A DNA stretch of 35,329 nt, from IMG/VR virus record IMGVR_UViG_3300022917_000007; one strand, 5' to 3'. Made by a program: the position numbers and the translations under genes. Numbering within the stretch: the stretch's first letter is position 1; each line of letters begins with the position of its first letter. This stretch comes from a virus. Shown here piece by piece: positions 4,002 through 28,140 of the stretch. Under the pieces are notes generated by a model, which was not told where the DNA came from, did not search any database, and was given only the letters and a program-made list of their open reading frames with translations.

Positions 4002-4435
4002 TAGCTCGACTCGTCACCGCGGGCGTAGACCGGCTTGCCGATGCACACGAGCGTGACCGTGGTCTGCTCGTTGTCCCGGGCCGCACCGCCCACGCTCGGG
4101 GCCTTGATCTTGAGCGTGCCGGTCCACGTCACGTTCTCTGCCGGGATGTCCGGGTGGTGCGACAGCCGGAACGTGACCGTCTCGCCGTCGTGCTTCCACA
4201 GGTAGTCGGAGAAGCCGTCGGAGCGCCAGTCGGCGAACGCCGTCAGATCGAGCGTGTAATCCGGATCGGTCTCGTCGGTGTCCTCTCCGGTCGGGCACAG
4301 CGTGTAGAGCTTGTCGCCATCCTCGGTGTTGTTGTTCAGCGTCCATTCGTTGATCTGGCACTCGAACGCGATGTCGCTCGGGTCGGTGCCGAGCGAGAAC
4401 TCGATCAGCTTGATTTTGCGCTTGTGGATCGTCAT
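4001..4435 (-). CDS. Major tail (tube) protein candidate
   Basis: 144-aa ORF with ATG 4435-4433 after AAGGGG. It lies directly upstream of the G/GT chaperone pair, the conserved slot for the tail tube gene. No motif recognised beyond position and size. Confidence 0.55.
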   Translation of the reverse strand: MTIHKRKIKLIEFSLGTDPSDIAFECQINEWTLNNNTEDGDKLYTLCPTGEDTDETDPDYTLDLTAFADWRSDGFSDYLWKHDGETVTFRLSHHPDIPAENVTWTGTLKIKAPSVGGAARDNEQTTVTLVCIGKPVYARGDESS

Positions 4436-24557: not shown

Positions 24558-24836
24558 GTGCCCACCTGGGAAGACACTCACGTCGGAGACCTCGTGCTCG
24601 GGTATGACAACCGCGAGTATTGGGTCTCCGACGTGTGGCCAGCCGAAGCGCGCGGCCCGGTCGTGACGATCGTCGACAACCTGACGAACGTGGCGACCGG
24701 GCCGTTTCAGCCGCCGCCGGGCACGCCCATTACCGTGCTGCGCAGCGCAGACATGACGATCGAGAGCGAGGCGTTCACCGTGCTGCACGCGGCCGGCCTC
24801 GATCCGCAGCTGATGAGGGAGACGTACCAACCATGA
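24558..24836 (+). CDS. Hypothetical protein
   Basis: GTG 24558 lies immediately after TAG 24555-24557. 92 aa. Its TGA overlaps the next ATG (ATGA). Confidence 0.65.
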   Translation: MPTWEDTHVGDLVLGYDNREYWVSDVWPAEARGPVVTIVDNLTNVATGPFQPPPGTPITVLRSADMTIESEAFTVLHAAGLDPQLMRETYQP

Positions 24837-26191
24837 CCAATCCGACCCCGCCCCGGATCGTGGGCCGCATCGGCAAGATGCAGGTCAGCAACGGCCGATA
24901 TCACGACGGCGTGCGCTCGTACCAGCGCGTGACCAACCTGCTCAAAGAGATCGAAACCGACACGTGGAATCTCGACGAGTGGGACCGCAATATGCACGTG
25001 ATCGGGTTGGCAATGCGCCCCGATCTCGTGCTCGGCGTAGCTGCTGCTGCGCAGTACGACGAGCACGGAAAGCTGACCGCAGAGGCGAAGAGCACCCTGC
25101 GCGGTCTGCGGTCGCAGGCGGTCGCGGCAGCCAAGAGCAAAGCCGGCGCCAATCAGGGAACCGCGGTACACACGGCGACCGAGCGAATCGATCTCGGCGA
25201 GACCGTCGAGCAAGTGGCGCTCCCGTACCCGTTCGATCTCGACCTGATCGCCTACCGCGATCTCGTCGCGGCGATGGGAATCCGGTACCGGCCCGAGCAC
25301 ATCGAGCGCTCCGTGCGCAACGTGGTGACCGACAACGTGGGCACGTTCGATCGGCTCGGCGAGAGCGAGATGCTCGTGCAGATGGGCGTGCTGGCGCCGG
25401 GTGAGCTGATCGTGGTGGATGTCAAGACCGAGGACGCGCCGCTGTACAACTTGATGCACATCGCGCCGCAGCTGGCCGAGTACGCGAACGCGGCCGACAT
25501 GTTCGTGCCCGAGCCGACCGCGGACGCGCCGAGCGCCGGCCGGTACGAGCCTATGCCGAACGTGAGCCGGGTGGCCGGGCTGGTGATACACGTCCGCAAC
25601 GGGCGGGCTGTGCCGTACCTGATCGACCTGACCTCCGGATGGTCGAGCGCCCTGCGCGCGGCCGAGCAGCGGGACGCGATGAAGGCAAGCAAGATCAAGC
25701 TCGGCGAGCCCGGATGCTGGGCGGTCGCCGTGCCGATCGATCTGCCGGCGCCGGCGCGCGTGGTCGACTCGGCCGCGGTCGCCGCGAGCGCAGCGCAGCA
25801 CGCCATCGAGCGTGGTGGCCAGCGGTGCCTGACGTGTCAGAAGCCGATCACGCCCGGGCGTCCGCACGCGTGCCCGGCGCCCGCGGCGCGGCCGGCTGAG
25901 ACCGCGGTCGTACAGCAGGCGGTCACGGGGGCGGACGGCAACGTGACGTGGCACGTCATCCCGGACGGCCCGCAGCCGCTCGAAGCGATGCTCTGGGCCG
26001 ACATCATGGCCGCGCCCGATCTGCCCACGCTGGCCACGCTGTTCGAGCGCGCGAGCGCTCAGGGGATCGAGTGGGCCGGGCCGATCGCGAACGCGGGCAT
26101 TGAGCGGTCCCGGATCGTGCAGTGCCCGCAGCGCGAGCTCCACAACGTGGGCGCGTGCGCATGCGGATGGCGCGAAGGGCTGGCGCCCTAA
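24833..26191 (+). CDS. PD-(D/E)XK (RecB/Cas4-like) exonuclease with a C-terminal extension
   Basis: 452 aa from ATG 24833. Motif series GTAVHTATE ... FDRLGE ... LIVVDVKT ... QLAEYANA fits a D...(D/E)xK...QxxxY nuclease core. Later Cys clusters CLTCQK...HAC and CPQ...CACG. Confidence 0.7.
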   Translation: MTNPTPPRIVGRIGKMQVSNGRYHDGVRSYQRVTNLLKEIETDTWNLDEWDRNMHVIGLAMRPDLVLGVAAAAQYDEHGKLTAEAKSTLRGLRSQAVAAAKSKAGANQGTAVHTATERIDLGETVEQVALPYPFDLDLIAYRDLVAAMGIRYRPEHIERSVRNVVTDNVGTFDRLGESEMLVQMGVLAPGELIVVDVKTEDAPLYNLMHIAPQLAEYANAADMFVPEPTADAPSAGRYEPMPNVSRVAGLVIHVRNGRAVPYLIDLTSGWSSALRAAEQRDAMKASKIKLGEPGCWAVAVPIDLPAPARVVDSAAVAASAAQHAIERGGQRCLTCQKPITPGRPHACPAPAARPAETAVVQQAVTGADGNVTWHVIPDGPQPLEAMLWADIMAAPDLPTLATLFERASAQGIEWAGPIANAGIERSRIVQCPQRELHNVGACACGWREGLAP

Positions 26192-26210
26192 TAGGCGACG
26201 TGATAGGTTT
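26188..26210 (+). promoter_or_regulatory. Copy D of the conserved 23-bp element
   Basis: CTAATAGGCGACGTGATAGGTTT. The first half contains the exonuclease TAA stop. TGATAGGTT resembles an extended -10 ahead of the tRNA-like element and the 26386 gene. Confidence 0.5.
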
Positions 26211-26263
26211 GCTTTACCCCCGCAGGGCTGGCCGGACCAAGTTTGGATGGCTCTGCGGGACAA

Positions 26264-26335
26264 GGGGCGATGGTGTCGATTGGTAGGCACACGCGACGGC
26301 CGCGCGAGGTTGGGGTTCGATTCCCTAGCGCCCCA
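26264..26335 (+). tRNA. tRNA-like element (non-canonical; possible pseudo-tRNA or processing signal; GGC at the anticodon position)
   Basis: Canonical T arm TGGGG-TTCGATT-CCCTA. Acceptor GGGGCGA/GCGCCCC (6 of 7 pairs) plus discriminator A. D arm GTGT-cgattggtag-GCAC with GG. But the anticodon stem has only 4 clean bp (CGCG/CGCG), the loop ACGGCCG lacks U33 and a purine at 37, the variable region is short, and no CCA is encoded. Confidence 0.4.
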
Positions 26336-26385
26336 CGAGAGCGATCACCCGATCGTGACTCACGGTCCCGAACTAAGGACACCGA

Positions 26386-27072
26386 ATGACGAACCCGTTC
26401 CTCCCGCCGCAGCAGGGCCAGCAGGCGCCCGCGGCGCCGGTCAACCCGTACGCGCAGCCCGCGCCGGCGCAGCAGCAGCCGAACCCGTACGCGCAGCCGC
26501 AGGCCGCGCCGCAGCAGTACGCCACGCCGGCGCAGAATGGCGGATCGCCGTGGCCTCCCGGCGCGACCGGCGGCGCCCCCGGCCTGACGGCCACGCCGGG
26601 GCAGTTCATGCGGCCCGGGCCGCCGCCGCCGCCCGGGCAGGGTAGTGGCCCGCGGGTCGGTGACCTCAAGTCCCGGCTCCTGTTGATCCTGCCCGAGCGC
26701 TGCGACCGCGGAGTCGCGTCGAAGTACAAGAACGACGACGGCTCGGTCAGGGTGCAGGACAAGATGATCGCAACGTGTGTCGTGCTCGATGGTGGACCGC
26801 TTCGGTGGGGCGCCACGCAGCAGAACCCGCAGGGCTCGACCGGCAACGTGCCGTACGTGATCAAGGGTCTCTGGATCCTTTCGTCCGGGCTGATCGCGCA
26901 GCTCGAAGACGCGCTCGCGCTGCGGCTCTCGGGCGGTCCCGGGATCGCGCTCGGCCGCCTCTGGCAAGCCGGGCCGGCCGGCAACGACCCGTACGTCCTG
27001 GCCGACCCGAGCCCGCAGGACGCGCAGCTCTACGACCAGTACGTCTCGCAGGTCAACCCGTTCGCGCTCTGA
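26386..27072 (+). CDS. Pro/Gln-rich N-terminal low-complexity protein with a globular C-terminal domain (unknown function; SSB-like role is only a guess)
   Basis: 228-aa ORF with ATG 26386 after AAGGA. The N-terminal 90 aa are PQ/PA-rich (NPYAQP repeats). The C-terminal domain starts VGDLKSRLLLILPE. It ends in QVNPFAL. Confidence 0.75.
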   Translation: MTNPFLPPQQGQQAPAAPVNPYAQPAPAQQQPNPYAQPQAAPQQYATPAQNGGSPWPPGATGGAPGLTATPGQFMRPGPPPPPGQGSGPRVGDLKSRLLLILPERCDRGVASKYKNDDGSVRVQDKMIATCVVLDGGPLRWGATQQNPQGSTGNVPYVIKGLWILSSGLIAQLEDALALRLSGGPGIALGRLWQAGPAGNDPYVLADPSPQDAQLYDQYVSQVNPFAL

Positions 27073-27208: not shown

Positions 27209-27304
27209 GTGCGCGAAAGACTGGCTGACGCTCAGCTGATGATCGGGCTCGTGACGATCGTGGTCGCGGCGGTCGCGTTCGTGCTGGCGCCGGTATGGAT
27301 CTAA
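27209..27304 (+). CDS. Possible 31-aa transmembrane micro-protein
   Basis: GTG 27209 lies 3 nt after GGAAGGGGGAG. Peptide VRERLADAQLMIGLVTIVVAAVAFVLAPVWI. Overlaps the rusA-like ATG by 10 nt. Confidence 0.4.
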   Translation: MRERLADAQLMIGLVTIVVAAVAFVLAPVWI

Positions 27305-28140
27305 TCCTGCGCGTCTACGGGCGGCCGGCGCCCGAGGGGTCGCACGAAACCGGCCAGAACGGTTACGTGATGCACAGCAGCGCGTACCTGCAACCGTGGC
27401 GCTCAGCTGTGAAGGGGGCCGCCTTCCGGCTGTACCGCGACCTGGGGATCGCGCCGGCCGCGTTGCCGCTCATCCCGTACCCGTTCCCGTGTTGGGTGAC
27501 GATCACGCACTACCTGCTCGACGATCAGTGTCGCGCCGCCGGCACGGACGAGCCGACCGGAAAGCCGGACGGTGACAAGCTGCTGCGGGGCACGATCGAT
27601 GGACTCGGCGAGGGGCGCGTGTTCGGCGACGACTCGCAGATCCTCGGGCACCGAACGTTCAAGGCGCGCGGCGAGGCGGCCGGTGCGCTGATCCAAGTAA
27701 CAGCAGTTCGCCCATGGTGGGCGGGCGACGAAAACAGGGAGATCCAAGTGGCTGAGCAGTTCATCCCGAACGGGCAGTTTCAGCTCGTTCTCTCCGCGGT
27801 TGGCACCAACGGCGACGGCGACCGCACGTGGGAGACCGTGATCGACGTGACCGACACGCCGGAATCGATCGTGCAGACGTGGATGCCGGGCATCGCGGAA
27901 CGGCTGTGGAACGCCCCCGCGTCGCTGGCGCCGGCGCTCTCGCCGAGCACCGAGACCAAACCGCAGCGCGGCCGACCGCGTAAGGCCACTGCTGCGCCCG
28001 CTGAGCCGGCCGCTCCGGCGCCGGAAGCGCCCGCGGCGCCCGAGGTGCCCGCGGCGCCCCCCGCGCCCGCCACGGTGGCGACGGCGCCCGCGCCGATCGA
28101 GGTGGCGCAGCGCGTCAACCCGTTCGCGCGACCGGCCTGA
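27295..28140 (+). CDS. rusA: RusA-like Holliday junction resolvase fused to a C-terminal extension (AT-hook, Ala/Pro-rich tail)
   Basis: 281 aa. N-terminal VYGRPAPEGSHE ... PDGDKLLRGTIDGLGEGRVFGDDSQI matches the RusA catalytic pattern. The C-terminal half carries RGRPRKA (AT-hook), AP repeats and a terminal RVNPFARPA. Confidence 0.7.
   Translation: MDLILRVYGRPAPEGSHETGQNGYVMHSSAYLQPWRSAVKGAAFRLYRDLGIAPAALPLIPYPFPCWVTITHYLLDDQCRAAGTDEPTGKPDGDKLLRGTIDGLGEGRVFGDDSQILGHRTFKARGEAAGALIQVTAVRPWWAGDENREIQVAEQFIPNGQFQLVLSAVGTNGDGDRTWETVIDVTDTPESIVQTWMPGIAERLWNAPASLAPALSPSTETKPQRGRPRKATAAPAEPAAPAPEAPAAPEVPAAPPAPATVATAPAPIEVAQRVNPFARPA

Follow-up and report, generated by a model that had tools for sequence, protein, structure and literature searches.

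The window analysed here is the whole 35,329-nt stretch of IMG/VR virus record IMGVR_UViG_3300022917_000007, a 35-kb phage-type genome with a G+C content of 65–70%. Our subject is a tRNA-shaped element of 72 nt (26264–26335, plus strand), which lies between an exonuclease gene and the gene that follows it. Pfam and PHROG searches identified tail, portal, protease, terminase, HNH, helicase and Prim-Pol/D5 primase genes on the minus strand; the plus strand carries an operon encoding a Cas4/RecB-type exonuclease, a P/Q-rich protein and a RusA-like resolvase. The exonuclease (452 amino acids, 24833–26191; its longest open reading frame (ORF) begins at 24620) matched phrog_466 (E = 1.3e-41) and was a 100% match to P0001, and its distant tblastn matches were annotated as exonucleases or Cas4-family exonucleases of actinophages. 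The next gene (26386–27072; G+C at third codon positions, 0.92) encodes a 228-amino-acid protein with a P/Q-rich N terminus, which matched phrog_870, a family of unknown function (E = 7e-6), and for which we found no Pfam family, no PDB match and nothing linking it to tRNA biology. This gene, hereafter gene 26386, sits between the exonuclease and the RusA-like resolvase gene (27295–28140, plus strand), the position expected for a single-strand annealing or binding protein.

Relatives of the exonuclease numbered about 70 in public assemblies, and many of the sequences carrying them are about 35 kb long and look like whole genomes of one phage family. We compared the locus in 13 of these relatives, which are given L numbers below where they need to be told apart. 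Alignment-based scans returned 3 viral, 15 metagenome and 1 genome loci, most of which end before the spacer downstream of the exonuclease. Gene order around this site is conserved throughout the relatives.

The spacer is 194 bp long (26192–26385), from the exonuclease stop codon (26189–26191) to the ATG at 26386, and its length and the letters at 26264–26335 agree with a first-pass annotation made from the window alone. A promoter-like bipartite box on the plus strand (element D, CTAATAGG-N5-TGATAGGTT, 26188–26209), recognized by motif count, overlaps the start of the spacer, with the exonuclease stop codon falling within it, and is conserved after the exonuclease stop in every relative. Its second half, TGATAGGTT, occupies 26201–26209, includes the −10-like TAGGTT (26204–26209), and ends 55 nt upstream of the tRNA-shaped element, the spacing reported earlier. 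TGWTAGGTT, the octamer-plus-extended-minus-10 motif, was counted three times in the window, where 0.04 would be expected. The box is followed on the same strand by a hairpin, H1 (26219–26259), with an 11-bp outer stem, an inner stem and no U tract in the minimum-energy fold of the spacer, and all relatives have a matching G+C-rich hairpin (CCCCCGG...CCGGGGG) at the corresponding place. H1 would be either the 5′-proximal hairpin of a transcript started at the box or the end of the upstream operon, and a search for a terminator-like site with a T run found none.

Downstream of the element, the spacer fold contains a second plus-strand hairpin, H2 (GAG-A-GCGATC-ACCC-GATCGT-GA-CTC, 26337–26361), and then a conserved leader motif, CTCACGGTCCCG, and a ribosome-binding-like AAGGA (26375–26379) ahead of the start codon (26359–26385, plus strand); CACGGTCC is invariant or near-invariant across all relatives examined. 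H2, preceded by (C)ACGAG, is also present in L024, L029 and L021, where nothing occupies the position of the tRNA-shaped element, so it belongs to the conserved leader and not to the cargo described below. The leader as a whole (26337–26385) runs from (C)ACGAG through a 6-bp hairpin, whose loop is 4 nt long, to CTCACGGTCC, and it is conserved even where the element is missing. It is probably a regulatory or stabilizing element of the gene 26386 mRNA.

The minimum-energy fold of the element itself is a cloverleaf (−32.4 kcal/mol, z = −1.5, a stability not exceptional for its composition). Its acceptor strands (26264–26270 with 26328–26334) form six of seven pairs, the mismatch being A7×G66, and enclose a D arm (26273–26290) whose loop contains TTGGTA and hence the usual GG. 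An anticodon-like stem of only 4 bp (CGCG/CGCG, 26292–26295 with 26303–26306) closes the loop ACGGCCG (26296–26302), and a perfect T arm follows (26311–26327), with the T-loop consensus in GGTTCGATTCC (26314–26324), the single occurrence of such a motif in the window. The discriminator is A (26335); CCA is not encoded, and CGAG comes directly after. The perfect T arm, the D-loop GG, the acceptor mismatch, the anticodon-like stem and loop and the missing CCA had been listed in the first-pass annotation and could be re-read in the sequence.

Standard tools did not recognize the element as a tRNA. ARAGORN with default settings called no tRNA in the whole window and, with its threshold lowered to 80%, called the element but with a shifted loop. 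An Rfam scan of the element gave no match at gathering score, including the 29 bits set for tRNA (RF00005), whereas genuine tRNAs of one metagenome-assembled genome (MAG) scored 52–76 bits. In a local e-value search of 271 nt, the top match was mascRNA (RF01684; 20.6 bits against a gathering score of 42.5, E = 0.062), and the best tRNA-clan match retained was tRNA-Sec, at 17.7 bits against a gathering score of 47, a value also below the 29 bits of RF00005. Programs of the ARAGORN and Infernal type had been proposed earlier as the way to judge the element. They gave no call and sub-threshold scores, but the cloverleaf is backed by covariation among homologues, and it is this comparative evidence, from three homologues with compensatory changes, that lifts the element above chance.

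The homologues lie at 4403–4475 of L001, 4704–4775 of L004 and 3941–4012 of L061, in phages whose exonucleases are about 58–66% identical to that of the window. When the cloverleaf was imposed on the four aligned sequences, 95.8% of cells were standard pairs, and the sole exception was A7×G66, which is itself conserved. Six pairs have changed on both sides, the observed covariation score was reached by 0 of 500 column shuffles, and the signal was lost when partners were shifted by 1–3 columns. The two-sided changes include pairs 5–68, 49–65 and 50–64, and no pair has been broken by substitution: of 19 variable columns, compensated pairs account for 12 and a C-G to U-G change for one, and the others fall in the D loop (five) and the T loop (one). 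RNAalifold recovered the cloverleaf independently from the four homologues. It also offered an alternative in which G47-C67 and U48-G66 replace G6-C67 and A7×G66, giving a 5-bp acceptor and a 7-bp T stem; both versions keep a 12-bp stack, and because the positions concerned are invariant, covariation cannot choose between them.

Conservation starts exactly at G1 of the element, where mean pairwise identity rises to 84% (range 77–89%) from 30–37% just upstream; the leader stands at 59% and the flanking coding sequence at 52–59%. The four homologues share the anticodon stem, the variable region and the D arm without change. G-U pairs occur on the plus strand only (13–25, 50–64 and, in L061, 30–40), so the selected molecule would be the plus-strand RNA. 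From this comparison, we conclude that the element is under purifying selection as RNA and is not a decaying pseudogene, since compensated stems and 84% identity stand against diverged flanks. The earlier idea of a phage tRNA in decay thus sits poorly with what is the best-conserved stretch of the region.

What surrounds the element is a constant frame. In all relatives the box CTAATAGG-N5-TGWTAGGTT lies over the stop codon and is followed by H1, (C)ACGAG, H2, CTCACGGTCC and the start codon; between H1 and ACGAG is a slot of variable content, with lengths from 133 to 676 nt. The slot is empty in L021, L024 and L029, holds homologues of the window element in L001, L004 and L061, and holds other tRNA-like elements in L002, L025, L026, L027 and L060. 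Two elements are present in L004, and the 676-nt spacer of L028 (3791–4466) has at least four. Because the constant frame holds nothing, one or several differing tRNA-like elements, we interpret the site, from this comparison, as a cargo slot for tRNA-derived RNAs. The association is an old one, since two tRNA-like elements (4077–4336) follow the exonuclease gene even in L022, where the protein is only 38% identical. On the exonuclease tree, the four carriers of the window-type element are scattered in a well-supported clade of nine genomes, together with empty slots and other cargo, and such interleaving implies that the element is lost repeatedly or moves between phages. A conserved ORF in the slot was considered and ruled out by a 1-nt insertion or deletion in the D loop of L001 and by the range of slot lengths.

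Several of the other slot elements are closer to ordinary tRNAs in score than the window element is: L026 (44.6 bits), the first element of L004 (43.2 bits) and one element of L022 (34.4 bits) exceed the gathering score of RF00005. The acceptor/T/D top half is kept, with the anticodon arm missing or replaced, in the first element of L004 and in L027, L026 and L002. U33 is also missing from the two elements that were parsed by eye, the first of L004 and that of L025. The 108-nt element of L026 (3892–3999) has a long extra hairpin in the anticodon region, with a 13-nt apical loop that holds an 8-nt palindrome, AGCATGCT. Elements of 103–107 nt in L002 (4421–4523) and L028 (4003–4109) share an acceptor (GCAGGGG/CCCTGC) as well as an inner arm (CCTTGAC-NGTATTA...), the G/C swaps between them being compensatory, and by this sequence evidence we regard them as a second conserved family in the same slot, of which the first L004 element resembles a shortened relative. 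The elements of L028 are interspersed with repeated leader motifs (CACGGTCCCG, GATATT-type box), a pattern that would fit the addition of cassettes at the leader through recombination.

Near and distant DNA searches of 50,697 phage records with the region returned nothing beyond T-loop-sized matches to tRNAs of Brevundimonas jumbo phages. Exact patterns for the anticodon arm, and for the T arm together with the acceptor, matched nothing in IMG/VR. A D-arm pattern matched three times in IMG/VR; these were chance matches inside coding sequence, without a cloverleaf, and were discarded.

The body of the element is that of a tRNA. A covariance model built from the four homologues (R1) scored its own sequences at 93–100 bits and retrieved genuine MAG tRNAs at 20–39 bits, with Pro and Ala highest. 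The body resembles tRNA-Ala in its GGGGC acceptor start, TTGGTAG D loop, GAGGT variable region and A73. This retrieval and the likeness to tRNA-Ala support an origin from a tRNA.

The part that would decode is another matter. A standard anticodon arm has U33, a purine at 37 and a 5-bp stem; among the homologues, C occupies position 33 in three and A in the fourth, three of the four have a pyrimidine at 37, and a stem of four Watson–Crick or G-U pairs carries the loops ACGGCCG, ACGUACG, ACGAUCG and AACGCGU. Near-identical bodies thus present the triplets GGC, GUA, GAU and CGC at positions 34–36, so that the anticodon is not stable among orthologues, and the identities given by ARAGORN across the four are none or Pro, Thr, Ile and Ala. 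Position 14 is C, and the 3–70 pair is G3-C70, where alanine identity depends on G3-U70. It is not credible that amino-acid meaning changed four times with no change of identity elements, and on these sequence features the element is very unlikely to decode.

An unusual but working tRNA, for example one whose anticodon loop has been altered to escape host anticodon nucleases, would account for the intact cloverleaf, T loop and D-loop GG. With default settings, ARAGORN does call the L004 homologue as tRNA-Ile(GAT) and that of L061 as tRNA-Ala(CGC), and neighbouring slot elements (the first of L004, and L026) exceed the Rfam gathering score for tRNA; anticodon-loop changes are also known from phage tRNAs (PMC10264068). 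U33, however, is found in none of the four homologues, and one conserved body carries four unrelated triplets without matching identity elements: by established rules G3-C70 excludes alanine, and the long variable arm of tyrosine tRNA is absent. Together with the pyrimidine at 37 in three homologues, the 4-bp anticodon stem and a score far below those of genuine tRNAs, this makes a decoding role highly improbable.

The loop follows a rule of its own. Its last six positions, 33–38 (26297–26302, plus strand), spell a different self-complementary hexamer in each phage (CGGCCG, CGTACG, CGATCG and ACGCGT), and pairs 33–38, 34–37 and 35–36 have all changed on both sides while remaining complementary in all four. 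Under column shuffling, the chance of such self-complementarity is about 1 in 190 (an estimate from pair types in four sequences). While the rest of the element differs by about 10–20%, the loop is the fastest-changing part and yet is constrained: the apical loop keeps a self-complementary stretch of 6 nt by coordinated changes. Intramolecular folding does not explain this, because a hairpin cannot close on a loop of 0–2 nt. The predicted energies would allow loop–loop pairing between two molecules to be the property under selection, a possible explanation: the loop self-duplex is predicted at −7.4 to −11.7 kcal/mol, and the cofolded dimer at 12–18 kcal/mol below two monomers. A stronger version, in which the loop is a dimerization code, excised mimics form homodimers and the hexamer is lineage-specific so that self pairs only with self, is a speculative step that we think distinctly unlikely. 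We found no second hairpin with the same hexamer, which could be a hetero-kissing partner, in the next intergenic spacers.

Palindromic caps also occur in other slot elements (GTGCAC in L025, AGCATGCT in L026 and, in part, CTCGAG in L002) and are absent from L027, L060, the second element of L028 and L022, and we suggest the palindrome rule for this four-homologue element family only. Searches of the literature turned up no account of phage tRNA mimics whose loops are palindromic or self-complementary.

The same loop can be read at the level of DNA. In such an account, the element would be a tRNA pseudogene, an attachment-site leftover or a palindrome bound by a dimeric protein, and in the last form the palindromic loop could come from template-switch 'correction' of a quasi-palindrome and not from selection on RNA. 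The anticodon arm is indeed a near-perfect 15-nt DNA palindrome with one extra A (CGCG-A-CGGCCG-CGCG, centred between CGG and CCG), and coordinated multi-base changes that keep a palindrome fit template-switch mutation, an established mechanism. Moreover, palindromic hexamers are common and not avoided in this genome, where they take up 3% of positions (1049 found, 1100 expected). Template switching that restores palindromes could account for the palindromy of the loop alone. The DNA-level reading does less well for the element as a whole: compensation in the acceptor and T stems and the strand-specific G-U pairs point to selection on RNA, and flanks at 30–59% identity beside an element at 84% argue against decay. 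If the loop were a protein site, a change of all six bases among close relatives would be unexpected.

The attachment-site form of this account had been raised in the first-pass annotation and called hard to credit there, since no integrase had been seen. We found no integrase or recombinase in Pfam scans of 30 window ORFs or in a PHROG scan of 10 of them, and the element is a complete, non-canonical cloverleaf rather than the 3′ part of a tRNA. Nor was there identity to a host tRNA in the one doubtful MAG host compared, a Brevundimonas bin, where similarity to the 33 tRNAs is limited to the 13-nt T loop; this carries little weight, as the host may be a different one. Taken together, we regard an origin in DNA-level constraint or as a relic as quite improbable.

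We favour instead, with a probability of roughly 60%, the reading that the element is a functional, non-decoding tRNA mimic with an Ala-tRNA-like body, carried as accessory cargo. It would be transcribed early, from the promoter-like box over the exonuclease stop or by read-through, as the 5′ part of the gene 26386 mRNA. RNase P and 3′ processing enzymes recognize the acceptor/T stack and the elbow. Because these are intact in the element, with its acceptor/T-arm stack and D/T-loop elbow, host RNase P would be expected to cut at G1, and host 3′ tRNA-processing nucleases, perhaps with the CCA-adding enzyme, would finish the 3′ end. An indirect sign of such cutting may be that conservation sets in exactly at G1. 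Such processing would free a stable RNA of about 72 nt and leave a downstream mRNA that starts at hairpin H2. The freed RNA may act through its tRNA shape and its conserved non-canonical anticodon arm, most likely by occupying a host or phage tRNA-binding factor, and two molecules might pair loop to loop through the self-complementary loop. Candidate targets are a host enzyme that binds tRNA, a defence nuclease directed at tRNAs or a second molecule of the RNA itself.

The processing might also be the whole purpose. A processing handle and a mimic were two of the four roles offered in the first-pass annotation, and both are compatible with the comparison made here; that annotation mentioned neither the slot nor the self-complementary, hypervariable nature of the loop. 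A purely cis-acting handle, whose tRNA shape serves only for RNase P and 3′ nuclease cuts of the early transcript and whose released piece has no role, could remove the 5′ triphosphate together with H1, or separate the exonuclease mRNA from that of gene 26386. The element does lie inside the leader, between two conserved hairpins, its top Rfam match, although sub-threshold, is mascRNA, and the slot elements that keep only the top half (the first of L004, L027, L026 and L002) are as expected if the top half alone matters. However, L021, L024 and L029 have the same box, H1, H2 and leader without any element, so that expression of the gene needs no cut. If RNase P had only to recognize the element, an invariant anticodon stem, variable region and D arm should not be necessary; a mere handle would not require the self-complementary loop; and the arrays in L028 and L004 resemble a small-RNA gene cluster. 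We therefore consider a handle alone unlikely and prefer a role for the free RNA, because the leader is unchanged where the slot is empty, the anticodon arm is invariant, as is the variable region, and arrays occur in some relatives.

Several points weigh against a functional mimic. Close relatives have an empty slot, which makes the RNA dispensable, and the window shows no obvious partner protein. The comparison rests on only four homologues, and their high identity could come partly from recent exchange between phages and not from long purifying selection. Host signals also conflict. One relative, L023 (NZ_DASPLR010000055.1, 35145 nt), is binned in a Brevundimonas MAG, but the distant exonuclease matches among cultured phages were actinophages in 92 of 92 cases. 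A TAGGTT-type −10 fits actinobacteria. Since the protein matches and the promoter boxes both look actinobacterial, Brevundimonas is doubtful as a host, and the bin assignment of L023 may be wrong.

Should the interpretation hold, so that mimics occupy tRNA-binding enzymes or defence nucleases or pair with themselves, it would point to an unrecognized layer of phage–host conflict. The palindrome rule in particular is a sharp hypothesis that can be tested cheaply. The family is also a trap for annotation, two of its four members being called tRNA-Ile and tRNA-Ala by a standard tool.

Compared with canonical tRNA (RF00005), and with tRNA-Ala in particular, the element shares the cloverleaf, the 12-bp acceptor/T stack, the T loop TTCGATT, the D-loop GG, the GGGGC start, GAGGT and A73. 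It differs in its 4-bp anticodon stem, lack of U33, C14, A7×G66, G3-C70, pyrimidine at 37, shifting 'anticodon' and sub-gathering score. In shape, it recalls the mascRNA/MEN-beta module of MALAT1 and NEAT1 (RF01684), a tRNA-shaped module that does not decode, lies within a longer transcript and combines an intact top half with a stunted anticodon arm. The mammalian modules are nuclear, however, and 20.6 bits against a gathering score of 42.5 indicates a likeness of shape and not homology. Mammalian modules of the mascRNA type are excised by RNase P and RNase Z, the same logic as in mitochondrial tRNA punctuation, whereas processing of the phage element is a prediction. Among phages, the closest parallel in kind may be species 1 and 2 of T4 (RNAC and RNAD), non-decoding structured RNAs of unknown function that are made with tRNA-type transcripts and matured by tRNA-processing enzymes. 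These too are phage-encoded and do not decode, and a similar maturation is predicted for the phage element. The T4 RNAs, however, are longer and belong to a tRNA gene cluster of a large phage, whereas the element lies in an mRNA leader of a 35-kb phage.

For the loop, the nearest precedent is the dimerization initiation site (DIS) of human immunodeficiency virus type 1 (HIV-1), and palindromic kissing loops generally, in which a 6-nt self-complementary stretch lies in an apical loop (PMC4066764; review PMC7357161). Both the DIS and the phage loop hold a 6-nt apical palindrome that varies between relatives and yet is always palindromic. The DIS, however, is retroviral, with a 9-nt loop and flanking purines, whereas the phage element has a 7-nt loop on a tRNA scaffold and its dimerization is a prediction. 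GUGCAC, the loop of L025, is likewise found among HIV-1 DIS variants.

Altered tRNA genes of phages and genomic islands offer a further comparison. Changes in the anticodon loop have been proposed to let mycobacteriophage tRNAs evade anticodon nucleases (PMC10264068), tRNAs of Lak phages contain enigmatic short inserts (PMC6784885), and tRNA-Other of Bacillus cereus, a chromosomal, non-translating pseudo-tRNA, is reported to act on gene regulation (PMC3399842). Like the window element, the altered phage tRNAs and tRNA-Other are tRNA-type genes of a phage or island with an altered anticodon region or a regulatory role; unlike that element, which has no stable anticodon, the altered phage tRNAs still decode. 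Codon supply, or escape from defences that cleave tRNAs, is the usual explanation for tRNA genes in phages. The locus described here would be a third situation, in which a tRNA body is selected without a usable anticodon and is held in a hot-swappable slot in the early leader of a small phage. This case is marked by an RNA of near-normal size (72 nt), by compensatory changes that support a palindrome rule and by a slot with a defined place in an early mRNA leader.

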